Positions 18,976 through 52,825 of a DNA stretch of 64,000 nucleotides are shown one piece after another. The notes under the pieces were generated by a model, which was not told the DNA's origin, made no database searches, and saw only the letters and a list, made by a program, of their open reading frames with translations. Position numbers and translations under genes: made by a program. The stretch spans positions 32,017 to 96,016 of the forward strand of contig JAWXUP010000002.1 of the NCBI GenBank assembly GCA_044426345.1, written 5' to 3'. Positions within the stretch are counted from its first letter, which is position 1; each line of letters begins with the position of its first letter. The DNA is from Clostridia bacterium (GTDB lineage Bacteria > Bacillota > Clostridia > Oscillospirales > Butyricicoccaceae).

Positions 18976-19495
18976 GTAGGGGCGAACTGTGTTCGCCCGT
19001 CATATTGCGTGCATTGAATTTAATATTTTACGTAATTTTATTGCGTGTCACGGTACGTCGAGGACGCTGTACCATTACATTTTGCGTAAGATAAACCAAA
19101 TTTCAGCAAATAATTGTAGGGGCGAACTGTGTTCGTCCGTCAAATTGCGTGCATTGAATTTAATATTTTGCGTAATTTTATTGCGTGTCACGGTACGTCG
19201 AGGACGTCGTACCACTACATTTTGCGTAAGATAAACCAAATTTCAGCAAATAATTGTAGGGGCGAACTGTGTTCGCCCGTCATATTGCGTGCATTGAATT
19301 TATATTTTACGTAATTTTTATTGCGTGTCACGGTACGTCGAGGACGCCATACCATTACATTTTGCGTAAGATAAACCAAATTTCAGCAAATAATTGTAGG
19401 GGCGAACTGTGTTCGCCCGTCAAATTGCGTGAATTGAATTTAATATTTTACGTAATTTTATTGCGTGTCACGGACGAACACAGTTCGCCCCTACA
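18976..19495. repeat. Tandem array of four 140-bp REP/BIME-like units bounded by inverted GTAGGGGCGAAC / GTTCGCCCCTAC termini
   Basis: Unit starts at 18976, 19116, 19256 and 19396, an exact 140-bp period. Each unit is a type-1 hairpin, a linker and an inverted type-2 hairpin; the last unit closes with an inverted type-1 copy at 19471-19495. Confidence 0.9.
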
Positions 19496-19512
19496 GGTCA
19501 TAGCAAAATTTA

Positions 19513-19680
19513 TTACTGCACACCATCTGCATCTAAAAAAATTAGCTTTTCGCCTTGTTTCATATTACTGATTTGCACCATATTTTTGTTATATTCATCT
19601 ATATTTTTACTCTTTGTATAAATTAAATATGCCATTGGGTCACCAGTGGACTCAAAAACGTTCCAACAGATTTTCTCCAT
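19513..19680 (-). CDS. yqzL: YqzL-family small protein (55 aa), absent from the ORF track
   Basis: GAGGTG RBS then ATG; MEKICWNVFESTGDPMAYLIYTK... matches the W-x-V/F-x-x-TG-x-x-x-YL signature. It occupies the canonical position between era and recO. Confidence 0.75.
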   Translation of the reverse strand: MEKICWNVFESTGDPMAYLIYTKSKNIDEYNKNMVQISNMKQGEKLIFLDADGVQ

Positions 19681-19771
19681 ATATATCACCTCATACTATT
19701 ATTTTGAGTCGCACGTGGTTTTATATACGATGTAAAATTTGTATTGTTGTTTTAAATTTATTATATAATAT

Positions 19772-19943
19772 GTAGGGGCGAACTGCGTTCGTCCGTCATA
19801 TTGCGTTCGTTGAATTTATATTTTACGTAATTTTTATTGTGTGTTACGGTACGTCGAGGACGCCGTACCCTACGGTATTTGCGATGATTTTTTGCGTGGA
19901 AAAATTTTTCTGTATGGCACGGACGAACACAGTTCGCCCCTAC
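19772..19943. repeat. Single REP mosaic unit (type-1 forward, type-2 inverted, type-1 inverted)
   Basis: GTAGGGGCGAACTGCGTTCGTCCGT ... ACGGTACGTCGAGGACGCCGTACCCTAC ... ACGGACGAACACAGTTCGCCCCTAC. Confidence 0.9.
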
Positions 19944-19953
19944 AGTTTAAATC

Positions 19954-20844
19954 TTACTCATCATACCCAAAGTTTCTCATTTGGAATAAATTATTTCTCC
20001 AGCCTTCTTTAACTTTTACCCAAAGTTGAAGATTTACCTTGCCTTCGAACATTTTTTCTAGCTCAAAACGTGCTGTAGAGCCGATTTTTTTAAGAGATGC
20101 ACCTTGTTTTCCTATAACGATACCTTTATGGCTTTGTTTTTCACAGAAAATAGTCGCTTCGATATCAACAATTCCGTTAGGACGTTCGCTCATACGTTCG
20201 ATATATACAGCAACTCCGTGTGGAATTTCTTTTTCTAGAGAGTGCAACATTTTTTCACGGATAATTTCAGCTACAAGCACTTTTTCTGGTTGGTCTGACA
20301 CCATATCGTCTGGGAAAAGAGCAGGGCCTTCGAAAGCGTTTTTCTTAAATTCTTTTAGCAGTGGTTCTAAACCAATTTTATTTATAGCACAAACTGGAAC
20401 GATAGCGTTGAAATCGTGTGCTGCGCCATAAACTGCCATAACTTCTAGCAATTTTTCTGGTGCAATCGTATCCATTTTATTGATAACTAAAATAGCTGGC
20501 AACTCGAATTGTTTGATTTTGTCGATTAATTCTTGTTCTGGGTCACCGATATTAGCGATTGGTTCTACAACTAGCGCTACAGTGTCAACGTCAGAAACAG
20601 TTTCGTTTACGATTTTTACCATAAAATCACCTAAGCGACTTTTAGGGCTGTGAAGACCTGGTGTGTCCATAAAAACGTATTGCGTATCGTCTTTGTTTAA
20701 AATACCAGTAATTCTTGTACGAGTTGTTTGTGGTTTGTTTGAAACGATAGCAACTTTTGAGCCTACAAGCGCATTAGTTAAAGTAGATTTGCCAACGTTT
20801 GGACGTCCTACGATTGAGATAATCGAAGATTTTGTGATGTTCAT
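19954..20844 (-). CDS. era: GTPase Era
   Basis: G1 GRPNVGKST, G3 DTPG, G4 NKMD, and a C-terminal KH domain. Confidence 0.95.
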   Translation of the reverse strand: MNITKSSIISIVGRPNVGKSTLTNALVGSKVAIVSNKPQTTRTRITGILNKDDTQYVFMDTPGLHSPKSRLGDFMVKIVNETVSDVDTVALVVEPIANIGDPEQELIDKIKQFELPAILVINKMDTIAPEKLLEVMAVYGAAHDFNAIVPVCAINKIGLEPLLKEFKKNAFEGPALFPDDMVSDQPEKVLVAEIIREKMLHSLEKEIPHGVAVYIERMSERPNGIVDIEATIFCEKQSHKGIVIGKQGASLKKIGSTARFELEKMFEGKVNLQLWVKVKEGWRNNLFQMRNFGYDE

Positions 20845-21294
20845 TTATGTTCTCCTTTTGAAGATAAACCACAGGTTTATCAACGTTAATATTATTAAAA
20901 TTCCTATATAAATCACGGTTAAATTCGCTAAAATTATACCTATTTTCGGTGTAAAAATTACAAGTCCGATAATAACACAAGAAATAGCACAAACCAATAC
21001 GGCAGCAGCTGCAATATCTTTAGCGTTTTTTATGAAAATATTATATTCAAAGCCAGTTCGGTTGCATAGACATTCTATCGCTGTGTTTAACAGCTCAGCA
21101 GAAAGCACTTGCGCAAAACACATCATCATAATTGCAAATTCTATTGTAGAAATTTGAGCAAGATGTGAAAAAATCAGTACATACGCAATCGCAACAAGGT
21201 GTATTCGGAAATTTCGCTCGTTATTTACGCAATATTTGATACCATCAAGTGCAAAACCGAAACTTTTTCTTAGTTTTCTTATTCCTCGTTTCAT
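20845..21294 (-). CDS. dgkA: Diacylglycerol/undecaprenol kinase (DgkA family)
   Basis: N-terminus SFGFALDGIKYCVNNERNFRIH plus 3 TM segments; lies between ybeY and era. Confidence 0.85.
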   Translation of the reverse strand: MKRGIRKLRKSFGFALDGIKYCVNNERNFRIHLVAIAYVLIFSHLAQISTIEFAIMMMCFAQVLSAELLNTAIECLCNRTGFEYNIFIKNAKDIAAAAVLVCAISCVIIGLVIFTPKIGIILANLTVIYIGILIILTLINLWFIFKRRT

Positions 21295-21782
21295 CTTCCA
21301 ATACCCAAAATACCTAAAATTTCTTTTTCCTTCGAACGCATTAAATCAGCGTCAATATCATCAGCTTCGTGGTCATAACCTAGTAAATGCAGAACGCTAT
21401 GTACGGTTAAAAACGCAAACTCACGTTCATTTGAATGACCAAACTCGCGTGCTTGCTCGATGATTTTATCATACGAGATAATCATATCTCCTAAAGCTAA
21501 TTCGTTAGTATCTGGGTCGATACATAGGTCTAAATCGTCTTGCATTTCGCCGTTGTGATATTCAACCATCGGGAAAGAAAGCACATCAGTAGCGTAGTCT
21601 TTTTCACGATATTCGCGATTAAGCTGATGGATTTCTTCGTTGTCTGTAATTGTGATGTCTATGTGACAGTCTTGCTCGATTTTGTGATACTCAAGCACAG
21701 CAGTTGCACATTTTAAAATTAGGTCTGGTACGGATTGTTCGATGTCAAGTTCGGTAAAAATTTCTACATTGTGTTTTGGCAT
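21291..21782 (-). CDS. ybeY: rRNA maturation endoribonuclease YbeY
   Basis: Zinc motif HSVLHLLGYDH; 163 aa. Confidence 0.95.
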   Translation of the reverse strand: MPKHNVEIFTELDIEQSVPDLILKCATAVLEYHKIEQDCHIDITITDNEEIHQLNREYREKDYATDVLSFPMVEYHNGEMQDDLDLCIDPDTNELALGDMIISYDKIIEQAREFGHSNEREFAFLTVHSVLHLLGYDHEADDIDADLMRSKEKEILGILGIGR

Positions 21783-21790
21783 AAAATTCC

Positions 21791-22969
21791 TTATCTTTCT
21801 TTTTCTACTCCAATATTTTCTAGAGTTTCGATGTCCATTTGTATAGATATTATATTATTTTCATCATTATATATTTGTGAGTTTTTAACTATATCACCGT
21901 CGATATGCTCGTTTAAAGATTTAAGTAAATTTTGTTCAAGCATACTAAAACCGACGTCGCTATTTATATTTGCAAGCTGTGGTTCATACTCGATATACTG
22001 TTCTGTTTTTAAGTAAATCGGAATGGTGACAGATGGCGACAGCGTAATTTTTCTCACACTTATTATTTTATCATAAAAAGCATACTCATTGCTAGTACTT
22101 TTGAATAAATTTATGGCTTTTTTACCGAAAATTAACGAATAATTCTTAATTTGAGCGCCAGTGTAGTCTTTTGAATAAATTTCAGAGGGTAAAATACGTG
22201 TGATATGATACCAAATCGAGGCTTTAATGTTAGCGATTGAATGAACATAACGCTGAGTGATATCCTCAACCTGTGGATAATTTACAACTTCGCTAGAAAC
22301 TAAAATGTCGCCCTCAAGAAAAGTATGCCCAACATCAACAACTTTTTCACCAGCGAGAACTTCTATTGTGTCGATAAGCCCAGTTTTATCTGCGATTATG
22401 TCGCACGCTACGTCTTTTGAGATTATTTCAGGAGTTTCGTCACGCTCATAAACCTCGACGGTTGCCATATTTCCTTTTAAATTTATCGCCATCCATAAAA
22501 TTTCGTCATTATCTAAAATTATATTATTTCTAACCTCATTTGCATTAATTTCTGATAGTTTTGTGCCGATTTTTATGTTATTTTGCTCTAAAGCATCGTA
22601 AATCATAGCAGTTTTGTCTGTTCCGATAACTTCGATGGCGAAAAGATAGTTAGTTAGAACGAAATAAGTAGCAAAAACTGCAAAAAAACCTAAAATTAGT
22701 GCGTAACGTGTTTTTATTTTAGATAGAACATATGGTAACCCACTTTTTTTTATTACGCTAGATGAACATTTTGCATTTGAAATTATCTTTTGAAGGCGTG
22801 TGTAATCTTCGATTAAAATATTAAGGTGAACCTCGTCTAAACCGTGTTTTGAAATGTTCCAAACGCTGATATTATTTAGTGCACAAAGATTGAAAAAACG
22901 CTCTAAATAAGCACCTGTTACGGATATTTTAAGGACGCCTTTGCAGAAATTTAGCAAGTATAAAATCAT
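21791..22969 (-). CDS. yqfD: Sporulation protein YqfD
   Basis: N-terminus GVLKISVTGAYLERFFNLC, a central TM segment, 392 aa; adjacent to yqfC. Confidence 0.85.
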   Translation of the reverse strand: MILYLLNFCKGVLKISVTGAYLERFFNLCALNNISVWNISKHGLDEVHLNILIEDYTRLQKIISNAKCSSSVIKKSGLPYVLSKIKTRYALILGFFAVFATYFVLTNYLFAIEVIGTDKTAMIYDALEQNNIKIGTKLSEINANEVRNNIILDNDEILWMAINLKGNMATVEVYERDETPEIISKDVACDIIADKTGLIDTIEVLAGEKVVDVGHTFLEGDILVSSEVVNYPQVEDITQRYVHSIANIKASIWYHITRILPSEIYSKDYTGAQIKNYSLIFGKKAINLFKSTSNEYAFYDKIISVRKITLSPSVTIPIYLKTEQYIEYEPQLANINSDVGFSMLEQNLLKSLNEHIDGDIVKNSQIYNDENNIISIQMDIETLENIGVEKER

Positions 22970-22973
22970 AAAA

Positions 22974-23249
22974 TCACCTTAAAAAATCAATGTTTGTAAT
23001 ATTTCCGACTATTAAAATATCGGTTTGAGAAATAGCACCTAAAACAAGGTTAAAACCGAAGATTTTAACGATTAAATCACCACAATTTATGTGAATTTCG
23101 GTGTCATCTAGGTTTAAAATGCCTTTGTGGTTTTCGATTATTACAGTATCGTTTGAAATTACCTCGATTTTAGAAACATCGCGTATTAAATTGGTAGGAA
23201 CTTCGAGTTTTCTCGAGATATCTATCATTTTCTGCTCTATTTTATTCAT
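22974..23249 (-). CDS. yqfC: Sporulation protein YqfC (YabP/YqfC family)
   Basis: 91-aa protein with the YabP-like pattern (IENHKGILNLDDTEI...) directly upstream of yqfD. Confidence 0.8.
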   Translation of the reverse strand: MNKIEQKMIDISRKLEVPTNLIRDVSKIEVISNDTVIIENHKGILNLDDTEIHINCGDLIVKIFGFNLVLGAISQTDILIVGNITNIDFLR

Positions 23250-23290
23250 ATTTCACCTCGTTTTTTTGGGTTGATGGGTATTTTGTGCTT

Positions 23291-23393
23291 GCTCACTCCG
23301 TTAAAATAAAATTTTGCCACCTATCTCTTAGAGGGAGGATTTTTCCCTTGGCTCCCTGTCGAGGGAGCTGTCGTCGCAATGACTGAGGGAGTT
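23291..23393 (-). repeat. Decayed copy of the GGGAG/CTCCC multi-hairpin element (module C)
   Basis: Its reverse complement aligns along its length with 50280-50387 (AACTCCCTCAGTCA..GCTCCCTCG..AGGGAGCCAAGG..CCTCCCT..GGTGGCAAAAT..ACGGAG). Confidence 0.8.
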
Positions 23394-23417
23394 CACGCAC
23401 AATAAACAAACCGAATT

Positions 23418-23733
23418 TGTAGGGGCGAACTGCGTTCGTCCGTTTCATTATATAAAATACCACATAATAAAAAACATCGAATTTGTAGGGTACGGCGTCC
23501 TCGACGTACCGTTTGCCATATAATAAATTTGCACCATTTCAATTTTAATCGGACGTATTGATTTCGACGGGCGAACGCAGTTCGCCCCTACAGATAAATG
23601 GTGGTTTTGCAATTAATTTGAACAAATTTTATTATGTGCACGGGTCGTCGAGGACGCCGACCCCTACTGGTAACATTATTTTTTATATGGTTATATTTTA
23701 TTACACGGCACGGGCGAACACTGTTCGCCCCTA
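23418..23733. repeat. REP cluster of five hairpin modules in the divergent yqfC/ylbJ region
   Basis: Type-1 forward 23418-23442, type-2 forward 23484-23511, type-1 inverted 23566-23590, type-2 variant inverted 23639-23666, type-1 inverted 23709-23733. Confidence 0.9.
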
Positions 23734-23812
23734 CAGAACATCACACAATATATTTATGCAAAAATACTACTTAAATTACCGTTTTTTCATATATATTAAG
23801 CGAGGTGGTTTG

Positions 23813-24889
23813 ATGTTTAATATTTTCACGAAGTTTTTGGTGCTGATGTCTATTTTAGGTGTGGTCATCTTCCCAACTGAGGTTATCGCTACAGGTACAG
23901 AAGCTGTCGAGCTTGCTTTTTATCGTGTAATACCGTCACTTTTTACGTTTTTCGTGTTGCAATCGCTTGTGGTTTCTATGGGGATTTCGGACGTTTTATC
24001 TGATACGTTCGGTGTAATTTTCAAAAAAATATTTCGCGTTTCAGACTCTTCACCATATATTTTAGGCATAATCGGTGGCTATCCAATGGGATTTAAGAGC
24101 GTTATGGAGCTTTATGGTAATAAAAAAATCAGCAAAGATGAGGCAGAGCGAATGGTAGGTTTTTGCAACAATGCAGGGCCTGCTTTTATCATAGGTTTTG
24201 TCGGAGTATTTTTGTTTTCGAATAAAAATATCGGCTATGTTTTGCTTTTAGGACATATTCTAGCAAGTGTAGTAGTTGGTATGATATTTAGTGTAAAAAA
24301 CGAAGAAACAAGGGTATTTCGTATAAAAAAAGTATCGGAAAAACCATTTTATGAAAATTTTATCAGTGCTGTAAATGGTGGTTTTTCATCGGTTTTAATG
24401 GTTTGTGGTTATGTTATATTTTTCAGCATTTTTGCACAGATTTTAACACAGTTTAACGTTTTTAGCACGATTGCGACGATTTTTTCTCCAATTTTGAACC
24501 AAATCGGTATAAATAACGAGCAATTTACTGCAATTTTAATCGGAATGATAGAAATGACTAGTGGTATTAATTATTTGCAAGGTATTGATGCAAGTATTGT
24601 CTTGAAAATCATAATCGCAAGCTTTTTACTAGCTTTTTCAGGTGCGTCTATTCATTTTCAAACGCTTAGCTTTAACAAAGGCTTAAATTTGAGAAAATAT
24701 TACATAACCAAGCTTATTCAGAGCATTTTAGCACCGATTTTCAGCGTAATTGCATACAAAATTATATATTCGAAAGCAAAAACGGTATTTTTAGCTGGAA
24801 ATTATAGCGATTTCAGACACTGTAGCTTTAATGATATTGCAATAATCACACTTTTTTTATTAATTTTATTGAAAAAATCACGTAAATAA
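23813..24889 (+). CDS. ylbJ: Sporulation integral membrane protein YlbJ (nucleoside-recognition/Gate-domain family)
   Basis: GAGGTGG RBS then ATG 23813. The upstream 85 codons of the track ORF run through REP repeats and were discarded. Multi-TM protein with YlbJ-like segments. Confidence 0.75.
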   Translation: MFNIFTKFLVLMSILGVVIFPTEVIATGTEAVELAFYRVIPSLFTFFVLQSLVVSMGISDVLSDTFGVIFKKIFRVSDSSPYILGIIGGYPMGFKSVMELYGNKKISKDEAERMVGFCNNAGPAFIIGFVGVFLFSNKNIGYVLLLGHILASVVVGMIFSVKNEETRVFRIKKVSEKPFYENFISAVNGGFSSVLMVCGYVIFFSIFAQILTQFNVFSTIATIFSPILNQIGINNEQFTAILIGMIEMTSGINYLQGIDASIVLKIIIASFLLAFSGASIHFQTLSFNKGLNLRKYYITKLIQSILAPIFSVIAYKIIYSKAKTVFLAGNYSDFRHCSFNDIAIITLFLLILLKKSRK

Positions 24890-24963
24890 TTGCAAATTTT
24901 TTAATAATGTTGTATAATTAATTCAAGTATATTAAAAAATAAAAAATTGTGAGGTTAATTTCA

Positions 24964-25959
24964 ATGGAAGATAAAAAAATTATATTCAGTGGCGTTCAAC
25001 CAAGTGGTAAATTAACGCTAGGAAACTATTTAGGGGCAATTAAAAACTGGACAGAAATGCAAGACGATTATGACTGTATTTACTGTGTAGTTGATATGCA
25101 CGCAATCACTGTTCGTCAAGAACCAGCTAAACTTCGCGCGCAAACATTAGAGGTTTTAGCTCAATATATAGCTTGTGGATTAGACCCACAAAAAAATACG
25201 TTATTCATTCAAAGTCACGTGCCAGCTCACGCAGAACTTGGCTGGGTTTTAAACTGCTACACAATGTTCGGTGAACTTCAAAGAATGACACAATTTAAAG
25301 ATAAATCTGCTCGTCACTCAGATAATATTACTGCTGGTCTCTTCACTTATCCAAGCCTTATGGCAGCTGATATTTTATTATATCAAACAGATTTAGTGCC
25401 TGTTGGTATCGACCAAAAACAACACGTTGAACTTTGTAGAAATGTTGCTACTCGATTTAATGGTATTTATGGCGACGTATTCAAAATGCCAGAACCATAT
25501 ATGGGTAAAGTTGGCGCGAAAATTATGTCGCTGTCTGAACCAACTAAAAAAATGAGTAAGTCTGATGATAACGTGAACTCATTTATCCTGCTTATGGACA
25601 AACCAGAAGATATTATGCGTAAATTCAAAAGAGCCACTACAGATAGCTATGCTCGTGTTTATATGGGTGAAGATAACTACGGTATTCAAAACTTAATGTC
25701 AATGTATTCTTTAGCTACAGGTAAATCTTTCGATGAAATCACTGCTGAATTTGACGGTCAAGGTTATGGTATATTCAAACCGGCTGTAGGCGAGGCGATT
25801 TGTGAATTATTACGTCCAATTCGTGAGCAAACTGAAGATTTACTTAAAAACAAAGACTACTTAGAACAAGTTTACAAAGAAGGCGCACAAAAAGCTGAGT
25901 ATAAAGCTCGCAGAACACTAGACAAAGTGTATAAAAAAGTCGGATTTATTAAAAGATAA
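24964..25959 (+). CDS. trpS: Tryptophan--tRNA ligase
   Basis: Class I motifs: FSGVQPSGKLTLGNY (HIGH-like region) and KMSKS. Confidence 0.95.
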   Translation: MEDKKIIFSGVQPSGKLTLGNYLGAIKNWTEMQDDYDCIYCVVDMHAITVRQEPAKLRAQTLEVLAQYIACGLDPQKNTLFIQSHVPAHAELGWVLNCYTMFGELQRMTQFKDKSARHSDNITAGLFTYPSLMAADILLYQTDLVPVGIDQKQHVELCRNVATRFNGIYGDVFKMPEPYMGKVGAKIMSLSEPTKKMSKSDDNVNSFILLMDKPEDIMRKFKRATTDSYARVYMGEDNYGIQNLMSMYSLATGKSFDEITAEFDGQGYGIFKPAVGEAICELLRPIREQTEDLLKNKDYLEQVYKEGAQKAEYKARRTLDKVYKKVGFIKR

Positions 25960-25968
25960 GAGGATTTT

Positions 25969-27021: not shown

Positions 27022-27030
27022 GAGAATACA

Positions 27031-28844: not shown

Positions 28845-28847
28845 TGC

Positions 28848-33963: not shown

Positions 33964-33974
33964 AATTATAAATG

Positions 33975-34440
33975 GGGGACGAACTGTGTTCGTCCCTTAT
34001 GTTTAAATTTGGTGGAATTTGTCACTAAATTTATTGTGCGAAAGCTCCCTGCACGCACAAAAAAACAACGCACCTTGTAGGGGCGACCTGTGGTCGCCTG
34101 TGACCACGATATAAAATATCACCATTTTGAAAAAACAACACACCGTAGGGGACGGCGTCCTCGACGTCCCGTTTGCCGTATAATAAGTTTGCAAAAATTA
34201 TCTTTAACGGACGTATTGGTATGACGGGCGAACACAGTTCGCCCCTACAAAAAAACAACGCACCCTTGTAGGGGAGACCTGTGGTCGCCTGTGACCACGA
34301 TATAAAATATCGCCATTTTGAAAAAAACAACACACCGTAGGGGACGGCGTCCTCGACGTCTCGTTTGTCGTATAATAAGTTTGCAAAAATTACGTTTAAC
34401 GGACGTATTGGTATGACGGGCGAACACAGTTCGCCCCTAC
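33975..34440. repeat. REP mosaic between infB and rbfA, including a roughly 192-bp unit duplicated in tandem
   Basis: Headless type-1 hairpin 33975-33997. Then twice: type-3 GTAGGGGCGACCTGTGGTCGCCTGTGACCAC, type-2 variant GTAGGGGACGGCGTCCTCGACGTCCCGT, linker L1, and type-1 inverted. Starts are 34077/34268, 34145/34338 and 34224/34416. Confidence 0.9.
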
Positions 34441-34502
34441 TGTGCAAAAATATCATTATATCATCATATAATCAACATCATAAAAACTAGGAGGAAAACC
34501 TT

Positions 34503-38866: not shown

Positions 38867-39042
38867 TATAGGTTGGGTTAAAATGTGTTTATCCGTGACT
38901 GCACAAAATCAAATACTATTTGTCAAGTTTTTTAAAAACTTGCTATATCCAAACGAGTAGTTTGGTCGCTATCGCAATAGCGAAACACTCCTTTTTCATC
39001 GAATTTTATATTATTTTACGGGCGAACACTGTTCGCCCATAC
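38867..39042. repeat. Decayed REP inverted doublet
   Basis: The left arm TATAGGTTGGGTTAAAATGTGTTTATCCGTGAC is an AT-mutated type-1 copy. The right arm ACGGGCGAACACTGTTCGCCCATAC is nearly intact. Confidence 0.65.
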
Positions 39043-43783: not shown

Positions 43784-43787
43784 ATAT

Positions 43788-43848
43788 CAGAAAAGGGTGT
43801 ATCTAAAGACTATAATTCCTCATCAAATTATAGTTTTAAATACACCCC
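43788..43848 (-). terminator. glnN terminator / intercistronic attenuator before amt; its apex is twin hairpin 1
   Basis: Minus strand reads GGGTGTAT..ACTATAATT-TGATGAGG-AATTATAGT..ATACACCC followed by TTTTCT. I see no promoter between it and amt. Confidence 0.65.
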
Positions 43849-43880
43849 ATTGTGTTATTTAATTTGCGTGCAATATTAAA

Positions 43881-45968
43881 TTAGTTTACGCTGTAAAGGA
43901 TTTCTGCGTATGTAGGTAAGCTCCAGTGTTTTTTAGGAACCATCATTTCAAGTTTATCAACTTCTGCACGAACTTCTGTAGTTAACATATAAACTGTGTG
44001 ACGGAAGTACTCTGCAAGTTCTAAAGTTTCTTCGATGTCACCAGCAGCAACAACAGCAGATTCAAGTTCTTCAAGTTTAGCATACATAGCAGTTGTAGTA
44101 GCTGAAACTTCTGTAGCTAAAGATATATCTAAATCAGCGTTGATACCAGCAGCTTTTTTACCAGCGATTAAGCCAAGTAATTCAGCTTGGTAAGACATAG
44201 ATGAAGGAGAGATTTCTTTTTTAACAAGGTCGATTAGCGTTAAAGCTTCGATGTTGATAGTTTTTAAGTATCCTTCAAGCATGATTTCACAACGAGAGTG
44301 AACTTCAGCTGCGGTGAAAACGTGGTGTTTCTCAAATACTGCAACATTTTTTGGAAGGATAAATGTTGGTAATGCATCAACTGTAGTTTTGAGGTTAAGA
44401 AGACCACGTTTTTCAGCTTCAATAACCCACTCATCTGAATAGTTATTACCGTTGAAAATAATTTGTTTGTTTTCTTTGATTGTTTTACGAACAAGTACTT
44501 TTAAAGCAGCTTCGAAATCTTCTGCAACTTCTAATTCGTCAGCAAAGATATTTAAAACTTCAGCAACGATTGTGTTTAAGATAATGTTTGGACCAGAAAT
44601 TGAGAAAGTAGAACCTAACATACGGAATTCAAATTTGTTACCAGTGAAAGCGAATGGAGAAGTTCTGTTACGGTCTGTAGTATCTTTAGGGAAGTGTGGA
44701 AGAACAGTAGAGCCAAGTTCCATTTGCATACGTGCAATATCTTGGTATTCAGCGTCTGCTTCTAAAGCGTCGATGATTTGTGCAAGTTCGTCACCTAAGA
44801 ACATAGATACGATTGCAGGAGGTGCTTCGTTAGCGCCTAGACGGTGGTCATTACCAGCGTTTGCAACAGATAAACGAAGTAAATCTTGATATTCGTTTAC
44901 AGCTTTGATAACTGCAACTAAGAATAACACGAATTGAGCATTTTCGTAAGGAGTTTCACCTGGTTCTAAAAGGTTTAAACCAGTGTCTGTAGAAAGTGAC
45001 CAGTTGTTATGTTTACCAGAACCGTTAACACCAGCGAATGGTTTTTCGTGAAGTAAGCAAGCTAAACCGTGACGGTCTGCAACTGATTTCATAAGTTCCA
45101 TTGTAAGTTGGTTGTGGTCTGTAGCGATATTTGTAGTAGTGAAGATTGGAGCAAGCTCGTGTTGAGCAGGAGCAACTTCGTTATGTTTTGTTTTAGCTAG
45201 GATACCAAGTTTCCAAAGTTCAGCGTCTAAATCTTTCATATAAGCTGAAACTCTAGATTTTAAAGTACCGAAGTAGTGATCGTCTAGTTCTTGACCTTTT
45301 GGAGGGCGAGCACCGAATAATGTTCTACCTGTGTACATAAGGTCAGGACGAGCTAACCACATTTCTTTATCAATTAAGAAATATTCTTGTTCTGGGCCTA
45401 CTGTAGAGTTTACTTTAGTAGCTGTAGTGTTACCGAATAAACGTAAAATTCTAAGTGCTTGAGTATTTACAGCGTCCATAGAACGAAGAAGTGGAGTTTT
45501 TTTGTCAAGTGCTTCACCAGAATATGAGCAGAAAGCAGTTGGGATACATAAAGTACCATCTTTAATGAAAGCGTAAGAAGTAGTGTCCCAAACTGTGTAA
45601 CCACGAGCTTCGAAAGTACTTCTAATACCACCATTTGGGAAAGAAGATGCATCAGGTTCGCCTCTTACAAGTTCTTTACCAGAGAATTCCATCATAATGT
45701 TGCCATCGTTAGTTGGAGAGATAAAGCTATCGTGTTTTTCAGCAGTGATACCTGTCATTGGTTGGAACCAGTGAGTAAAGTGAGTAGCACCTTTTTCGAT
45801 TGCCCAGTCTTTCATAGCTGCTGCAACAACGTCAGCGATGTCAGCTTCAAGATATGTACCTTGTGCGATTGATCTTTTTAGAGATTTGTAAGCGTCTTTT
45901 GGTAATTTGTTTTTCATTACTGTGTCATTGAAAACCATGCTACCAAATAATTCAGGAATTTGTTTCAT
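43881..45968 (-). CDS. glnN: Glutamine synthetase type III
   Basis: 695 aa; the N-terminus [15 protein letters not shown]...[12 protein letters not shown] is characteristic of GSIII. Confidence 0.9.
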
Positions 45969-46070
45969 ATGGATATTTCCCCCTTATAAAATTTAAAGCC
46001 CAATACAAAGAGCCTTTTTGAAATTTGAACAATAACCGATTGATTATTGCTTTTTTCGCTTAAAAAAACG

Positions 46071-46110
46071 AAAAAAGGGGTTGCGAACCGTACTACAGTT
46101 CACAACGCCC
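46071..46110 (-). terminator. Leader terminator about 10 nt after the predicted glnN transcription start
   Basis: Minus strand reads GGGCGTTGTGAAC-TGTAGTAC-GGTTCGCAACCCC followed by TTTTTT. Confidence 0.6.
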
Positions 46111-46127
46111 TTGTTGTTTATGTATGT

Positions 46128-46156
46128 ATTATATGATATGCAAGATGTTTTGTCAA
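46128..46156 (-). promoter_or_regulatory. Consensus sigma-A promoter of glnN
   Basis: Minus strand reads TTGACA-17 nt-TATAAT. Confidence 0.7.
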
Positions 46157-46444
46157 CGGTTTTTAAATAAAAAAATTAAAAAAAGGGTTTTGTACAATTT
46201 TTACAGAATTAGCTATATGTTTTTTGGTTATAATTTACAAATATGATTTTGCCGTTATCACGGTGAGCGTAAGTCCTTGGCATATGTTTTGATGTATTTT
46301 AAAATAGCTATGCATATTTTTGAACAGAACGTCGAGGACATAAAATGAAAAAAATGGATTAAAACCACTACAAAAAAATCAATAATAACGCATTATATAA
46401 ATAAATTTCGATAAAAAAACGGACATTTTATACACTTTATCTAA

Positions 46445-46473
46445 TTGACAAAAAAACTAAAATATTGTATAAT
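46445..46473 (+). promoter_or_regulatory. Consensus sigma-A promoter of glnA
   Basis: TTGACA-17 nt-TATAAT. Confidence 0.7.
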
Positions 46474-46480
46474 ATTTTAG

Positions 46481-46591
46481 TGAACAAAGGCGTTCATCAA
46501 ATAATGTAAGGTACGTTAAAAAAAACGATTTTTTTAGGAAAATCGTTTAAAACAGACCATTTTGCAGTGTTTGATGAGCGTCTTTATTATT
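46481..46591 (+). promoter_or_regulatory. Structured glnA 5' leader: two small AAGG-loop hairpins competing with a 14-bp long-range helix plus a U-rich tract
   Basis: P1 TGAAC-AAAGGC-GTTCA (46481-96); P2 AATGT-AAGGT-ACGTT (46503-17). AGGCGTTCATCAAA (46488-501) pairs with TTTGATGAGCGTCT (46570-83), followed by TTATTATT. Confidence 0.45.
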
Positions 46592-46604
46592 AAGGAGGGA
46601 AAAA

Positions 46605-47912
46605 ATGTCAACTACTATTAAGGATATTATGTCTTTTGTAAAGGAAAACGATGTGAAGTTTATAAGACTTGCATTTTGTGACCCTTTTGGTGTGCATAAA
46701 AATATTTCAATTATGTCTGACGAACTTGAATCAGCTTTTATAGATGGTGTTTCTTTTGATGCTTCGGCTATAGATGGTTTTGCAGATGTTGCCCAGTCGG
46801 ATTTGTTACTAATTCCAGATCCTTCAACTTTAACAGTACTTCCTTGGCGTCCATATCCTGGACGCGTTATTCGTTTTTACTGTAAAGTTACATATTTAGA
46901 CAAAACTCCGTTTGAGGCTGACAGTCGCCATATTTTAAAACAGGCACTTGTTCGTGCTAGTCAAATGGGATATGCTTGCGATATTGGTTCAAAATGCGAA
47001 TTTTATTTGTTTAAAACAAATGAAGATGGCGAGCCTACCAAAATTACATTAGATCAAGGTGGTTTCTTTGATATTTCTCCTCTAGATAAAGGCGAAGATA
47101 TTAGGCGTGAAATTTGTCTATATCTTGAAGAAATGGGATTAAATCCTGAAAATTCACATCATGAAAAAGGTCCTGGACAAAATGAAATTGATTTCAAAAG
47201 TTCAGATGCCTTAACTGCAGCGGACAATTTATTAACGTTTAAATCTGCGGTAAAATCAATTGCAGAGAGAAACGGTTTGTATGCCTCATTTATGCCAAAA
47301 CCTCTTTTGAATGAAAGTGGAAGTGGACTTCATATAAATCTATCATTATATAACCGAGGCGTAAATATATTTAAAGATATAGAGGGAAATAAGGCTGGAA
47401 GAAGTTTTGTTGAAGGCGTGTTGCAAAAAACTGCTGAGATGACATTGTTTTTAAATCCGATTATAAATTCTTACGAACGCTTAGGTAAATGCGAAGCTCC
47501 AACTTATGTTTCTTGGTCAAGACAAAATCGTTCGCATTTAATTAGAATGCCGATTAAAAGCGAGGAATTAAGCTATATGGAATTACGTTCGCCAGACTCT
47601 TCTGTAAATCCTTATATTGCATTTGCGCTTATAATTCACGCTGGTTTAGATGGTATAGAACAAAAATTAGAGCTACGTGATGCATCTACACAAAATTTAT
47701 ACATTGAAAATGATACTAAAGATTTGCAAAGCATACCAAACACTTTATCTAAAGCACTTGAAGTAGCAAAAGCTAGTGAATTTATTTCGAATTACTTAGA
47801 TGAGAATATGCTTTCTAAATATTTTGATGCAAAAGAAAAAGAAATTTTAGAGTTAGAAAAATCAACGGGTAGGGAAGATTTTTATGCTCAGAAATATTTT
47901 AAAAAAATCTAG
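46605..47912 (+). CDS. glnA: Glutamine synthetase type I
   Basis: AGGAGGG RBS; DVKFIRLAFCDPFG, KPLLNESGSGLHINLS, NPYIAFA motifs; 435 aa. Confidence 0.92.
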   Translation: MSTTIKDIMSFVKENDVKFIRLAFCDPFGVHKNISIMSDELESAFIDGVSFDASAIDGFADVAQSDLLLIPDPSTLTVLPWRPYPGRVIRFYCKVTYLDKTPFEADSRHILKQALVRASQMGYACDIGSKCEFYLFKTNEDGEPTKITLDQGGFFDISPLDKGEDIRREICLYLEEMGLNPENSHHEKGPGQNEIDFKSSDALTAADNLLTFKSAVKSIAERNGLYASFMPKPLLNESGSGLHINLSLYNRGVNIFKDIEGNKAGRSFVEGVLQKTAEMTLFLNPIINSYERLGKCEAPTYVSWSRQNRSHLIRMPIKSEELSYMELRSPDSSVNPYIAFALIIHAGLDGIEQKLELRDASTQNLYIENDTKDLQSIPNTLSKALEVAKASEFISNYLDENMLSKYFDAKEKEILELEKSTGREDFYAQKYFKKI

Positions 47913-47943
47913 ATGAGATAATTTTGTATTAAAATTAAGAAGG

Positions 47944-48525
47944 GTGGTAGTTTTTTTGGATAGTGCTTTAATTGTATCTAGTTCAGATAAAGGTAACGAC
48001 TTTTTTGTAAGTATGCTACGCCAGATTTTTTGTTCAAAAGTTACCACTGTAAAAACTTGTGGGGAAACAAGGCGTTTTATGATGGAACGTGACTTTGATT
48101 TGTATATTATAAATAGCCCTCTTACAGATGAAACAGGTGAAAATTTATCCATTCATATTGCTACTAGAAGTAGTAGTCAAGTTATTTTGGTGGTTAAAGC
48201 CGAACTTTATGATGTTATTTCGTCAAAAGTCGAAGATTATGGAGTTATTACAATAGCAAAACCGATTAATAGACATATGTTTTGGACGGCCTTAAAACTT
48301 GCTAAAGCATCTGGAAATAGATTGAAAATGTTGAAATCGGAAAACACAAAACTTACAAAAAAAATAGACGATATAAAAATAGTTGATAGAGCAAAATATT
48401 TACTTATATCATATTTAAATATGACAGAACCACAAGCTCATAAATATATCGAAAAACAAGCGATGGACTTGCGTGTTTCAAAACGAAAAATCGCAGAAAA
48501 AATACTCAGAACGTATGAAAATTAA
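47944..48525 (+). CDS. ANTAR-domain RNA-binding regulator with a non-phosphorylatable (pseudo) receiver domain
   Basis: C-terminal ANTAR motif VDRAKYLLISYLNMTEPQAHKYIEKQAMDLRVSKRKIAEKI. The receiver has SSS for the acidic pair and IIN for the phospho-Asp, with K-P retained. The start is uncertain (GTG 47944 or TTG 47956). Confidence 0.8.
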   Translation: MVVFLDSALIVSSSDKGNDFFVSMLRQIFCSKVTTVKTCGETRRFMMERDFDLYIINSPLTDETGENLSIHIATRSSSQVILVVKAELYDVISSKVEDYGVITIAKPINRHMFWTALKLAKASGNRLKMLKSENTKLTKKIDDIKIVDRAKYLLISYLNMTEPQAHKYIEKQAMDLRVSKRKIAEKILRTYEN

Positions 48526-48544
48526 TTTAAGAAGGTAGTAAAAA

Positions 48545-50149
48545 ATGACAAAATACATATTTGTAACCGGTGGTGTTGTATCCGGACTTGGAAAAGGAAT
48601 TACAGCAGCAGCTCTTGGTAGACTGCTTAAACAACGTGGCTTTAAAGTTGCTGCACAAAAATTAGACCCATATATGAACGTAGACCCAGGTACTATGAGT
48701 CCGTTCCAACACGGTGAAGTTTTCGTTACTGACGATGGTGGAGAAACAGACTTGGATTTAGGTCACTACGAACGTTTTATAGATGAAAACTTAACTAAAT
48801 TCTCAAATTTAACTTCTGGTAAAGTGTATTTCAGCGTACTTGCACGTGAACGTTCTGGAGGATATTTGGGAGAAACTGTACAAGTTATCCCTCATATCAC
48901 AAATGAAATCAAAGACTTTATTTACAAAGCAGCTGAAAAAACTTCTGCTGATATATTAATCACAGAAATCGGTGGTACAACTGGTGATATCGAAAGCCAA
49001 CCATTCTTAGAAACAATCCGTCAAATTTCTATCGAAAAAGGTAGAGAAAACTGCTTATTTATACACGTTGCTCTTGTACCATACCTTAAAGGTTCTGGTG
49101 AACACAAGTCAAAACCTGCACAACATTCTGTTAAAGAACTTCGTGGTATTGGTATTTCACCTAATATTATTGTAGCACGTGCTGACGAGCCATTAAGTCA
49201 CGGAATAGCTGATAAAATTGCACTATTTTGTAACGTTAAACCAGATTGTGTTATCGAAAATATTACACTTCCATCATTATATGAAGCACCACTTATGTTA
49301 CACGAAAACGGTTTAGACGAAGTGGTTTGTCGTGAATTGAATTTACAATGTAAAGAACCAGACCTTACTGAATGGAGAAATCTGTGCAGAAAAGTTAATG
49401 AAGTTTCAGGCGAAGTTACAATTGCCATCGTTGGTAAATATGTTCAACTTCACGATGCTTATCTTTCTGTTATGGAAAGTTTACGTCACGCCGGAATAGA
49501 TGCTGGTTACTCTGTAAACTTAAAATGGGTAGACAGCGAAACTGTAACAGATGAAAATTCTGCTGAACTTTTTGCAGATATCGACGGTATGGTTATTCCA
49601 GGTGGATTTGGTGATAGAGGTATTGAAGGTAAAATTTCTGCTTGTAAATATGTTCGTGAAAATAATGTACCTTTCCTTGGAATTTGTTTAGGTATGCAAA
49701 TTACTGTTATTGAATATGCACGTCACGTTTTAGGACTTTCTGATGCACATTCTGCAGAATTTTCACAAACAACAACTAACCCTGTAATCCATATTATGGA
49801 AGACCAAATTGCAATTACAAATAAAGGTGGCACAATGCGACTTGGCGCATATCCTTGTAAAGTTTCAGAAGGAACATTACTTAAAGAATTGTACGGTGAA
49901 AATATGATTTCAGAACGTCACCGTCATAGATATGAATTTAACAACGATTACCGTGAAAAATTAGAACAAACTGGTTTTGTAATTTCTGGTACATCGCCTG
50001 ATAATAACTTGGTTGAAGCTATTGAAATACCAGCAAATGATTATTTCGTAGCGGCTCAATTCCACCCGGAATTTAAAAGCAGACCAAACAAACCACACCC
50101 ACTTTTCAAAGGCTTGATTAACGCAGCTATTAAAGCTAAAAACGCGTAG
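48545..50149 (+). CDS. pyrG: CTP synthase
   Basis: [17 protein letters not shown]-terminus and GATase active site GICLGMQ. Confidence 0.97.
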
Positions 50150-50165
50150 GAAATAAATATTTTCT

Positions 50166-50520
50166 GTAGGCTATGTTCTTACGTGACACGAAATAAAATG
50201 TAAATGCACTTTGTAGGGTACGGCGTCCTCGACGTACCGTGGTACGCAACCTAAGTATTATCGTGCAAAAATATCGTGTAAACTCCCTCAGTCACTGCGG
50301 TGACAGCTCCCTCGGAGAGGGAGCCAAGGAAAAAAGCCTCCCTGTCGAGGGAGGTGGCAAAATCTTTGATTTTGACGGAGGGAGTTTACACGCAATAAAA
50401 TATCAATGCACTTTGTAGGGTACGGCGTCCTCGACGTACCGTGTACGCAACCTAAGTATTACCGTGCAAAAATCAAAATCAACGCACAAAATATGACGGA
50501 CGAACACAGTTCGCCCCTAC
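50166..50520. repeat. REP mosaic with a roughly 202-bp direct duplication flanking module C
   Basis: Decayed type-1 copy at 50166. Type-2 GTAGGGTACGGCGTCCTCGACGTACCGT at 50213 and 50415, each with about 45 nt of identical flank. Type-1 inverted copy ends at 50520. Confidence 0.9.
50280..50387 (+). repeat. Module C: a roughly 108-nt GGGAG/CTCCC multi-hairpin element (candidate structured RNA or MITE)
   Basis: Closing helix AAACTCCCTC/GAGGGAGTTT encloses four hairpins: GTCAC-TGCG-GTGAC, GCTCCCT-CGGAG-AGGGAGC, CCTCCCT-GTCG-AGGGAGG, CAAAATC-TTT-GATTTTG. Confidence 0.7.
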
Positions 50521-50619
50521 AAATTTATTGATTTTTCGTGATAAAGCGTGAAAATGCACAAAAAATGCGTATTACCTTTAGCTAACTTGAGCGAAAACAT
50601 AGAATTTCAATTAAAGTTA

Positions 50620-50648
50620 TTGTATAAAAATAAAAAAAGTGGTATAAT
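50620..50648 (+). promoter_or_regulatory. Sigma-A promoter of dapL
   Basis: TTGTAT-17 nt-TATAAT with a TG extended -10. Confidence 0.6.
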
Positions 50649-50679
50649 ATTCTAAAATAATCAATTTACGGAGGAAAAA

Positions 50680-51861
50680 ATGAAAATTAACCAAAATTAT
50701 AAAAATTTAAAAGATAGCTATCTTTTTTCTACTATCGCGTCAAAAGTACGTGAATTCTCAGCTGCAAACCCTGATAAAAAAGTTATCAGACTTGGTATCG
50801 GCGACGTAACTCGTCCTCTCGCTCCAGTTGTAATCGAAGCTATGCACAAAGCTGTTGATGAAATGGGTGTTAAAGAAACTTTCAAAGGTTATGGCGATGA
50901 ACAAGGTTACGGTTTCTTACAAGAAGCAATACAAACTTACTACGCTAAAAAAGAAGTTTCTTTAGATTTATCTGAAATTTTCATCAGTGATGGTGCAAAA
51001 AGCGATTTAGGTAACATTCTTGATATTTTAGATGTTGACAACGTTGTTTTAGTACCAGACCCAGTATATCCTGTTTATGTTGACACAAACATTATGGCTG
51101 GCAGAAAAACAATTTTTATGGACGGTAACACAGAAAATAGTTTCCTTCCAATGCCAGATTACGCTGTAGATTGCGATATTATCTATCTTTGTTCTCCAAA
51201 CAACCCAACTGGTGGTGTTTATAATAAAGATGGCTTAAAAGCTTGGGTTGATTATGCTATTGCTAAAAATGCAGTAATTTTATTCGACTGTGCTTACGAA
51301 ATCTTTATTTCTGACGAATCTCTTCCTACAAGCATTTACCAAATCGAAGGTGCTGAAAAATGTGCTATCGAATTCTGTTCATTCTCTAAAACTGCTGGTT
51401 TTACTGGTGTTAGATGTGGTTATACTGTAGTTCCAAACGCACTAGTATTTGATGATACAAAACTTAACAAATTATGGTTACGTCGTCAAACTACAAAATT
51501 CAATGGTGTACCTTACATCGTTCAATGTGGTGCTGCTGCTGTATTTACAGAAACAGGTATTGCTCAAATTAAAGAAAGCGTTGACTACTATATGGCAAAC
51601 GCACAAATCATCGCTAAAACACTTACTGAAATGGGTATGTGGTTCATCGGTGGTGACAATTCTCCATACATCTGGTTAAAATGCCCAGGTGGTATGACTT
51701 CTTGGGAATTCTTCGATTTCCTACTTGAAAATGCAAACGTTGTTGGTACTCCAGGTGCTGGTTTTGGCGAAAAAGGTGAAGGTTTCTTCCGTTTAACTGC
51801 TTTCGGTGAAAAAGAAAACGTTATCGAAGCTATGGAAAGATTTAAAAAATTACAATTTTAA
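50680..51861 (+). CDS. dapL: LL-diaminopimelate aminotransferase
   Basis: N-terminus [35 protein letters not shown], and PLP-lysine context [12 protein letters not shown]. Confidence 0.88.
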
Positions 51862-51865
51862 TCAT

Positions 51866-51899
51866 AACCGACACTTATTAATTTAAGTGTCGGTTTTTT
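51866..51899 (+). terminator. Rho-independent terminator
   Basis: AACCGACACTTA-loop-TAAGTGTCGGTT followed by TTTT. Confidence 0.85.
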
Positions 51900-51925
51900 C
51901 AAATTTATAAGGTGAGGTGGCTAAT

Positions 51926-52780
51926 ATGGAACATAAAATTGCACTAAAAAATGGTCAAATGATAAACAGATTAGGTCAAGGAACTTGGTATATGGGTGAA
52001 AATCCTACAATTGCAAAAAGTGAGATTGATACGCTAAAACGTGGTATTGAGCTTGGTATTAATCTTATTGACACAGCTGAAATGTATGGTTCGGGAAAAT
52101 CTGAACAGTTGATTTCAAAAGCTATTTCAGATGTTTCTCGTGAAGATTTATTTGTAGTATCAAAAGTTTATCCACACAACGCATCACAGGTGAAATTAGA
52201 AAAAAGTTTGGATAATTCGCTAAAACGTCTGAAAACTGATTATTTAGATATGTATTTGTTGCATTGGAGAGGTTCTGTACCTCTAGCTGAAACGGTGTAT
52301 TGTATGGAGCAACAAGTTGAAAAAGGTAAAATTAAAAGCTGGGGCGTTTCGAATTTTGATACTGAAGATATGGAAGAACTTTTGAGCGTTGAAAATGGTG
52401 AAAACTGTGCGTTAAATCAAGTTTTATATCATTTGGGCTCACGTGGTACAGAATTTGATTTGCAAGCATATTTGAAAGCTCATAATATTCCGATGATGGC
52501 ATATTGTCCACTTGCTCAAGCTGGTAGATTGGACAGAGGATTGTTCAATGACCCTGTTGTGTGTCAGCTTGCGAAGAAATATAATGTTTCATCGGCTAAT
52601 ATTTTACTTAATTTTGTTATGTTTGATGAGAATGTTATTGCAATTCCAAAAGCATCGAAAGTGGCACACGTTGAGGATAATGCGAAAGCGTTGGCATTTA
52701 AATTAACGGTTGAAGATATGAAAATGCTAAACGCTAAGTTTCCGGCACCGACTTACAAGCAATATTTGGATATTGTGTAG
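51926..52780 (+). CDS. Aldo/keto reductase
   Basis: GQGTW, IDTAEMYG and LHW motifs. ATG 51926 lies behind AGGTGAGGTGG. Confidence 0.88.
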   Translation: MEHKIALKNGQMINRLGQGTWYMGENPTIAKSEIDTLKRGIELGINLIDTAEMYGSGKSEQLISKAISDVSREDLFVVSKVYPHNASQVKLEKSLDNSLKRLKTDYLDMYLLHWRGSVPLAETVYCMEQQVEKGKIKSWGVSNFDTEDMEELLSVENGENCALNQVLYHLGSRGTEFDLQAYLKAHNIPMMAYCPLAQAGRLDRGLFNDPVVCQLAKKYNVSSANILLNFVMFDENVIAIPKASKVAHVEDNAKALAFKLTVEDMKMLNAKFPAPTYKQYLDIV

Positions 52781-52825
52781 ATATTTTACGTATAGGTGTC
52801 ACGGACGAACACAGTTATCCACTAC
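52781..52825. repeat. REP fragment (partial linker L2 plus degenerate type-1 inverted copy) abutting the stop codon
   Basis: ATATTTTACGTATAGGTGTC-ACGGACGAACACAGTTATCCACTAC. Confidence 0.75.

Follow-up and report, generated by a model that had tools for sequence, protein, structure and literature searches.

The window, a 64,000-nucleotide stretch of contig JAWXUP010000002.1 from an uncultured, spore-forming Clostridia bacterium of the gut, contains a dense population of short, GC-rich hairpins headed by the tetranucleotide GTAG. These repeats are very probably a system of repetitive extragenic palindromic (REP) sequences, arranged as REP doublets forming hairpins (REPINs) and as bacterial interspersed mosaic elements (BIMEs), that belongs to the GTAG super-family and is served in trans by REP-associated tyrosine transposases (RAYTs) resembling TnpAY1 subclass 2.4. 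It is a known kind of element in a host group for which no published description was found.

A fuzzy scan of the window with three consensus patterns identified 30 distinct units, comprising 17 of type 1, 11 of type 2 and two of type 3; the same scan on five shuffled windows identified none. A first-pass annotation made from the sequence alone had described about 30 GC-rich hairpin copies in both orientations, and these counts bear it out. With one mismatch allowed, the pattern GTAGGGGCGAAC matches the window 16 times against an expectation of 0.05, and the 28-nt type-2 pattern GTAGGGTACGGCGTCCTCGACGTACCGT, with three mismatches allowed, matches six times with none expected. A type-1 unit (25 nt) may be considered in terms of the segments GTAG-GGGCGAAC-TGT-GTTCGCCC-GT, and a type-2 unit in terms of GTAG-GGTACGGCGTC-CTC-GACGTACC-GT. 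Type 3 is a type-1 unit with a compensated stem (GCGACC/GGTCGC), and the outer stem of type 2 is present in three compensated versions (GGTAC/GTACC, GGGAC/GTCCC and GGGTC/GACCC). The GTAG head is exact in 22 units and off by 1–2 nt in the remainder, and about eight of the 30 units are degenerate. Many units from different loci are identical or only 1–2 nt apart. A tail C(C/T)GT had been proposed as common to all types; CCGT is present in most units, but the type-3 tail 'TGTGACCAC' is better taken as linker.

Every unit falls within eight loci between 18976 and 52825, and none is found elsewhere in the 64 kb. These are the loci named earlier, with coordinates that agree to within 1–2 nt (23418-23733, for example, is 23419-23734 here); only the remnants placed near 38867 and 50166 have decayed too far to be scored. 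A search of the whole window against Rfam at gathering thresholds, one of the checks proposed with the annotation, returned no match.

As single-stranded DNA (ssDNA), single units form stable stem-loops with folding energies of -8.2 to -9.9 kcal/mol (z -2.4 to -4.7). The association with the head is specific, since in 127 loci and the window GTAG precedes 284 hairpins with an 8-bp stem and a 3-nt loop, compared to 1–7 for each of seven control tetranucleotides, making it 40–280 times commoner in this position. Covariation was assessed with 87 distinct units that were selected by their 9-nt head alone. The basal five pairs are invariant in pair type (GGGCG/CGCCC), and the three apical pairs each occur with all four Watson-Crick types. 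Apical pairing was 74% with the true partner, a level that was reached by none of 1000 shuffles, and 21–38% with a shifted partner. The stems of these hairpins covary.

The units are organized at two higher levels. In one family of doublets, a type-1 unit on the forward strand is followed by linker A and then by a type-2 or type-1 unit on the reverse strand, as seen at 18976, 19116, 19256, 19396 and 19772, and in more diverged form at 50415-50520. In the other, a type-2 or type-1 forward unit is followed by linker C and a reverse type-1 unit, at 23485, 28848, 34145 and 34337, with a mean column identity of 86%. Both families consist of an inverted REP pair with a short spacer that recurs as a unit at several loci, as is characteristic of REPINs. 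Doublets are in turn stacked into tandem mosaics of alternating types and orientations with conserved linkers, in the manner of BIMEs; Tandem Repeats Finder reports a 140-bp period repeated 3.6 times at 18968-19473 and a 192-bp period repeated twice at 34057-34440. Inverted doublets joined by conserved AT-rich linkers and the stacking of copies into mosaics had both been recognized in the first-pass annotation. The AT-rich linkers had no match in 247 loci compared from other genomes, where the hairpins are widespread, and are thus considered lineage-specific.

A second repeat of approximately 110 nt, rich in CTCCCTC/GAGGGAG, lies within two of the REP arrays (50270-50395 on the forward strand and 23292-23410 on the reverse strand). 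It combines an outer stem with three hairpins inside, is not matched by any Rfam family, and is not called as a tRNA by ARAGORN. Pieces of related sequence occur at three loci of other genomes (loci are labelled L and proteins P from here on), namely L099, where they form the linker of two inverted REPs, L113 and L195.

No RAYT gene was found in the 64-kb window, in keeping with the earlier statement that it holds no transposase-like gene. A tblastn search with 122 RAYTs returned matches to REP peptides and one spurious match at 9440-9619, which was rejected as a RAYT since it is antisense within a dehydrogenase-like gene. The annotation had also suggested a search for a Y1 transposase gene without tnpB that is associated with the repeats. 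Genes of this kind, with precisely these hairpins on their flanks or inside them, were found in contigs of related Clostridia and are not this genome's own RAYT. An E. coli YafM sequence was used for tblastn as bait only, and the conclusions rest on the proteins recovered. The bait led to a 182-aa open reading frame (ORF) in L013, the product of which scores 25.9 bits against Pfam Y1_Tnp (PF01797), above the cutoff of 23. Its top NCBIfam match is REP_Tyr_transpos (NF047646) at 68.8 bits, below the cutoff of 80. The L013 protein has 1858 homologues at E <= 1e-5; among the best 120 of these, the named homologues are from Ruminococcus and other Clostridia, and several are annotated as 'REP element-mobilizing transposase RayT'.

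For protein P0032, the closest PDB sequence is 4ER8, the structure of E. coli TnpAREP in complex with a REP hairpin, and the same entry ranks first among the fold matches of the P0032 AlphaFold model (E 1.4e-7). P0032 has the motifs NHIH, WQ and YIENNP, which are those of TnpAY1 subclass 2.4 (Quentin et al. 2018, PMC6006769). Judged by motifs rather than by the published profiles, the Clostridia RAYTs appear to be 2.4-like, which is a provisional assignment. The proteins of the related loci combine the features that identify a RAYT: a Y1_Tnp fold, an HuH motif, a Y...NP tyrosine motif, and a single gene without tnpB. The genes neighboring them are housekeeping genes.

Two exact copies of the type-1 unit, in frame and inverted relative to each other, lie around the HuH motif in the RAYT genes of L013, L123, L125 and L127. 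In these genes and in those of L170 and L245, one hairpin is located approximately 45 aa before HuH and the other approximately 15 aa after it; the two in-gene hairpins bracket about 200 bp. The type-1 units encode the peptides VGAN.VRP and GRT.FAPT. Both REP peptides are present in 98 of 120 proteins of the L013-type clade (the best 120 of the 1858 homologues) and in 30 of 116 proteins of a second clade. Across homologues the two peptides covary as reverse complements, and in the predicted model of P0032 both are positioned in loops. The near-identical P0012 and P0032 carry different REPs at the first site, which may be read as evidence of REP swapping between near-identical genes. The 172-nt composite of the spacer from era to the yqzL-like gene (Table 1) was considered as a fragment of a RAYT gene interior and rejected, as the alignment has no similarity outside of the hairpins.

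Type 2 is associated with the second RAYT clade (L189-like), which numbers 835 proteins at E <= 1e-20. At L189, L253 and L239 (30–37% GC), a Y1_Tnp ORF is bounded on both sides by type-2 units and has no internal REP; the flanking unit at L253 is identical to the window's unit at 34145. In other members of this clade, in-frame type-2 units are read as VGDGVLDV and G.SRTP.PT. For type 3, the match is to the REP inside P0088. From the matches to the L013-type clade, the L189-like clade and P0088, it follows that each hairpin type of the window has a matching RAYT in related organisms.

A scan of a genome collection with GTAGGGGCGAACNNNGTTCG returned at least 120 loci, mostly in metagenome-assembled genomes (MAGs) and isolates of gut Clostridia; the hosts among the matches listed include Oscillospiraceae, Acutalibacteraceae, Ruminococcus, Eubacterium and Clostridium argentinense. 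This pattern specifies 17 bases, for which about 70 chance matches are expected in the collection by our own estimate. Of the matches listed, 130 of 166 continue with CCCG, which is not specified by the pattern, and most loops are TGT or TGC; the bulk of the matches are therefore taken to be the same element. The type-2 pattern was found in human, termite and other gut samples among the metagenome matches listed. The same units are widespread in Oscillospirales and Lachnospirales, and a near-identical 25-nt type-1 unit is found in host contigs ranging from 25 to 68% G+C. In the complete genome of Chakrabartyella piscis, a cultured member of the Lachnospiraceae, 17 GTAG hairpins occupy 20.5 kb around a RAYT gene (CP092441.1, 3334874-3355398; L256). 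These hairpins have many stem types, one of which is the window's type-3 stem. Several copies of an identical type-1 unit are present in termite-gut MAG contigs labelled Zoogloeaceae, Helicobacteraceae and Coriobacteriales (L010, L004/L012 and L052), reflecting either spread across phyla or mis-binning.

The orthologous spacers of three syntenic relatives (L248, L249 and L251, with Era proteins 91%, 86% and 77% identical to that of the window) were compared, as had been proposed, and the sites were found to be empty. The gene order ylbJ / yabP-yqfD-ybeY-dgkA-era-yqzL-recO-mutS2 is maintained in all three contigs, and no GTAG hairpin is present in their 18–21 kb. The spacer from era to yqzL is 63 bp in the relatives and 268 bp in the window, that from yqzL to recO is 57 bp and 618 bp, and that between ylbJ and yabP is 94 bp and about 550 bp. 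In these three spacers, the alignments of window and relative break at the REP arrays, and no target-site duplication is evident when filled window sites are compared with empty sites; such duplications had been named earlier as the mark of ordinary insertion sequence termini. The comparison shows that whole arrays have been gained (or lost) in a lineage-specific manner. Since DNA identity to the window is only 72–75% for the closest relative, L248, and 65–83% for L249 and L251, the empty sites reflect gain or loss over a long span and not recent movement.

With respect to real genes, all eight loci are intergenic, as first described. Seven are located between co-directional genes and one in a divergent spacer; in five of the seven, no more than about 20 nt separates the start from the upstream stop codon. 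The same pattern has been reported for REPs (Di Nocera 2013, PMC3733652). The ORFs that overlap the repeats are read-through of the REP arrays. These are the mechanically called ORFs 18989-19234, 19269-19571 and 34031-34456 (81–141 aa), and the N-terminal 90 aa of ORF 23558-24889, an extension of ylbJ from 23558 to about 23810. Annotated as genes, such ORFs would be spurious. Terminator-like sites are no more frequent in the window than expected (12 versus 11.8), and T tracts are lacking in the units. The best of these sites, and the only one to fit well, is a hairpin without GTAG at 33972-34000, which may be a REP remnant that now acts as a terminator. Two read-assembly contigs from Logan that cover the organism's rbfA and era (L121 and L122) stop within approximately 20–40 nt of those genes, where the arrays of the window start. 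From these contig ends, it is concluded that the repeats break short-read assemblies.

The features are collected in Table 1. The window has a G+C content of about 35% and carries core chromosomal genes of a spore-former, including mutS2, recO, era, yqfD, ylbJ, infB, rbfA, putP and pyrG. Its Era protein is 65–68% identical to those of the closest named taxa (Butyricicoccus, Agathobaculum and Intestinibacillus). An ORF of about 62 aa at 19497-19685 on the reverse strand, which putatively encodes a YqzL-like protein, is located between era and recO, has a ribosome-binding site, and is flanked on either side by a REP array; the syntenic relatives have a gene of 42–52 aa in this position. Unrelated to the REPs, a 20-nt tandem repeat, ATATCAAGGGTAAAATGTTG, is present in 4.1 copies at 14747-14827, just 5' of an ORF starting at 14823.

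Table 1. REP units, doublets and arrays of the window, and RAYT genes of other genomes with in-gene REPs.
Feature	Position	Strand	Composition or evidence
REP mosaic, recO / yqzL-like gene	18967..19496	.	Three 140-bp units, each type 1(+), linker A, decayed type 2(-), linker D; then inverted type-1 doublet 19396-19494
Type-1 unit GTAGGGGCGAACTGTGTTCGCCCGT	18976..19000	+	ssDNA fold -9.2 kcal/mol, z -4.7
Type-2 unit, decayed head TAAT for GTAG	19050..19077	-	Fuzzy scan
Type-1 unit	19116..19140	+	Consensus scan
Type-2 unit, decayed	19190..19217	-	Fuzzy scan
Type-1 unit	19256..19280	+	Consensus scan
Type-2 unit, decayed head	19330..19357	-	Fuzzy scan
REPIN-like inverted doublet, type 1(+)/linker A/type 1(-)	19396..19494	.	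ssDNA fold -30.9 kcal/mol, z -8.8
172-nt composite, era / yqzL-like gene	19772..19943	.	Type 1(+) 19772-19796, type 2(-) 19846-19873 and type 1(-) 19919-19943, joined by linkers A and B in that order; fold z -5.8
REP array, divergent ylbJ / yabP spacer	23419..23734	.	Five units: type 1(+) 23419-23443, type 2(+) 23485-23512, type 1(-) 23567-23591, type 2(-) 23640-23667 (GGGTC/GACCC stem variant), type 1(-) 23710-23734
Decaying doublet, 4 nt past stop codon	28848..28948	.	Linker C between a type 1(+) headed TTAG and a degenerate type 1(-)
GTAG-less hairpin of type-1 sequence, GGGACGAAC TGT GTTCGTCCC	33972..34000	+	9 nt past infB stop; T-rich tail next
Mosaic of two 192-bp copies, infB / rbfA	34057..34440	.	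Type 3(+) 34077, 34268; type 2(+) with GGGAC/GTCCC stem 34145, 34337; linker C; type 1(-) 34224-34248, 34416-34440; Tandem Repeats Finder and consensus scan
Solitary type-1 unit, head GTAT, 3' of M20 peptidase gene	39018..39042	-	Consensus scan
Array 3' of pyrG	50213..50520	.	Type 2(+) 50213-50240; 'gagggag' structured element ~50270-50395; type 2(+) 50415-50442 and type 1(-) 50496-50520, joined by a diverged linker A
Degenerate solitary type-1 unit, 20 nt past stop codon	52801..52825	-	Fuzzy scan
RAYT gene with in-gene REPs	L013:353-901		DNA confirmed
RAYT gene with in-gene REPs	L125:2933-3472		DNA confirmed
RAYT gene with in-gene REPs	L127:10001-10504		DNA confirmed
RAYT gene with in-gene REPs	L123:10001-10603		DNA confirmed
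RAYT gene with in-gene REPs	L170		DNA confirmed
RAYT gene with in-gene REPs	L245		DNA confirmed

The REP/REPIN/BIME interpretation, already offered in the first-pass annotation, agrees with the stable GTAG-footed hairpins, the covarying stems, the linker doublets, the mosaics and the intergenic location. In the mechanism proposed here, each 25–28-nt unit folds as ssDNA into a hairpin with an unpaired 5' GTAG. A first layer of organization is formed by REPIN-like inverted doublets of about 100 nt (type 1/linker A/type 2, or type 2 or type 1/linker C/type 1), and a second layer by stacking of doublets into BIME-like mosaics through tandem duplication. The elements are non-autonomous, with one or two single-copy Y1/HuH RAYT/TnpAREP genes elsewhere in the genome as the most likely mobilizer, and the enzyme would be closest to TnpAY1 subclass 2.4 / Bertels group 4. 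It is predicted to read GTAG and the hairpin on ssDNA and to cut and rejoin beside it; because of this mode of action, copies would pile up in spacers just 3' of genes without a target-site duplication. This genome presumably encodes such a RAYT, and this enzyme, rather than recombination alone, would spread the copies; the repeats may also affect host gene expression. Near-identical copies and empty sites suggest that the system is active or recently active, with several copies clearly decaying.

Several points weigh against this interpretation, beginning with the lack of a RAYT gene within the 64 kb. Copies at 19050, 19330, 28924, 33973 and 52801 are decayed, and with several copies in this state the population could be a relic that lacks a functional enzyme. 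Tandem duplication, which needs no transposase, accounts for part of the copy number, and the relatives with empty sites are distant (72–75% for L248; 65–83% for L249 and L251), so no recent movement is shown. To our knowledge, RAYT-driven REP transposition has been directly demonstrated in no organism; in vitro cleavage and rejoining are all that is established for E. coli TnpAREP. In a relic, the RAYT would have been lost and the arrays would persist or expand solely through tandem duplication, recombination and gene conversion. This is regarded as unlikely. The window without a RAYT, the roughly one quarter of units that are degenerate, and the two arrays that are plain tandem duplications would all suit such a history; however, it leaves the many identical or nearly identical units (1–2 nt different) at separate loci unexplained, together with composite doublets that share the same linker at four to five separate loci. 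The organism's read-assembly contigs also end at the arrays, as expected of a high-copy repeat.

Hairpins that evolved in the host as terminators, attenuators or mRNA 3' stabilizers, having arisen in place and not being mobile, are a very improbable source of the repeats. Their placement 3' of genes in co-directional pairs at seven of the eight loci and the terminator-like, GTAG-less hairpin after infB would be expected of such elements. However, the absence of T tracts, a number of terminator-like sites no greater than chance, the use of both orientations, the lack of units in the orthologous spacers of three relatives, and the same 25-nt sequence in hundreds of unrelated spacers in other genomes are not. 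REPs of E. coli are known to have a secondary regulatory role, and the REPs of the window may have one as well. It is hardly credible that the repeats are miniature inverted-repeat transposable elements of a DDE-type insertion sequence, with the GTAG hairpins as its terminal inverted repeats. The 172-nt element at 19772-19943 does have 25-nt inverted termini, but each such 'terminus' is itself a covarying hairpin, the units are also found singly, in direct orientation and in many combinations, and filled and empty sites differ without a target-site duplication. Moreover, the same units flank or sit within Y1/HuH genes and not DDE transposases. Three other assignments were rejected: attC sites, as the core motifs do not match; CRISPR arrays, as unique spacers and cas genes are lacking; and IS200/IS605 ends, as there is no tnpB and no Y...Q enzyme.

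Compared to known systems, the repeats of the window most readily recall the REPs and BIMEs of E. coli, with which they share a 5' GTAG at the base of an imperfect palindrome, two or more REP types that alternate in orientation, conserved linkers, mosaic arrays, and an intergenic location mostly 3' of genes. E. coli TnpAREP (RayT/YafM; 4ER8) is likewise a Y1/HuH enzyme and the top sequence and fold match of the Clostridia RAYTs; from an alignment with 4ER8, its GTAG-contacting residues W, Q and R (PMC6006769) are retained in the Clostridia RAYT and E is replaced by D. In contrast to the long, bulged E. coli REPs, the hairpins of the window are short (8–9 bp with a 3–4-nt loop), the linkers are AT-rich (37–54 nt), and the host is a Gram-positive spore-former. 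The E. coli enzyme belongs to subclass 2.2, whereas the Clostridia enzyme appears 2.4-like and many of its members have REPs inside the gene.

With TnpAY1 2.4 / RAYT group 4, the Clostridia enzymes share the motifs NH[IFV]H, WQ and YIxNNP, a length of about 160–200 aa, GTAG REPs, and REPs in frame within the gene, the last being described for subclass 2.4 (PMC6006769). This subclass is described as common in Cyanobacteria, Bacteroidetes, Chlorobia and Caldilineae and as present in 'various phyla' (Quentin et al. 2018, PMC6006769; Bertels et al. 2017, PMC5581495). Group 4 occurs in 17 classes and has modest REP numbers, with 14 occurrences of the flanking 16-mer; group 1 RAYTs have been noted in Clostridia (Bertels 2017, PMC5581495). 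Here, the hosts are gut Clostridia and the repeats are locally dense (30 units in 34 kb). Furthermore, the in-gene REPs occupy two fixed loops around HuH, the first of which, before helix A, is absent from the 2.4 entry in Table 1 of PMC6006769. Like the REPINs of Pseudomonas (Bertels and Rainey 2011, PMC3116915), the repeated unit is an inverted REP doublet with a short spacer, and singlets resemble decayed remnants. The doublets of the window differ in often being hetero-dimers of REP types that match two RAYT clades and in having longer spacers, as judged from one window. IS200/IS605 elements (IS608, ISDra2) have the same transposase fold, ssDNA subterminal hairpins, and no target-site duplications. 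Unlike these elements, the RAYTs have a Y...NP motif instead of Y...Q and lack tnpB; the hairpins do not enclose the transposase as a multi-copy unit, and they are dispersed far from any transposase gene.

GTAG REPs have been described in Proteobacteria, Cyanobacteria, Chloroflexi and the PVC group, with Firmicutes unmentioned in the text (Di Nocera 2013, PMC3733652). The REPIN papers retrieved in a literature search likewise made no mention of Firmicutes; the string GTAGGGGCGAAC had no match, and RAYT combined with Clostridia terms returned nothing relevant. The element is not considered a new kind, since databases already label genes as RayT and in-gene REPs have been published for subclass 2.4. 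Work on REP/REPIN-RAYT systems is almost entirely Proteobacterial, and the Clostridia population extends the host range.

A broader proposal may be put forward tentatively and with more doubt than confidence: that GTAG-GGGCG hairpins and 2.4-like RAYTs constitute one REPIN-RAYT system across gut Clostridia, horizontally shared with other phyla, with an in-frame, covarying REP pair around HuH. If true, the RAYT gene would serve as enzyme and, at the same time, as substrate or master copy. The REP sequence could then couple to enzyme specificity, permit REP swapping between genes (P0012 versus P0032), or regulate the enzyme, and the hetero-dimeric doublets of the window would need two RAYT clades jointly.

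For specialists, three features may be unexpected: a near-invariant 25-nt unit in hosts of very different G+C content and apparently of different phyla (L010, L012 and L052, with binning provisional), hetero-dimeric doublets built from the REP types of two RAYT clades, and a fixed, covarying REP pair around HuH with apparent REP swapping. The repeats account for the fragmentation of assemblies at these spacers and for spurious ORFs with the peptides VGANCVRP and GRTQFAPT. With their different stems, the RAYT/REP pairs of the Clostridia also offer a tractable set for understanding how the enzyme reads its hairpin.

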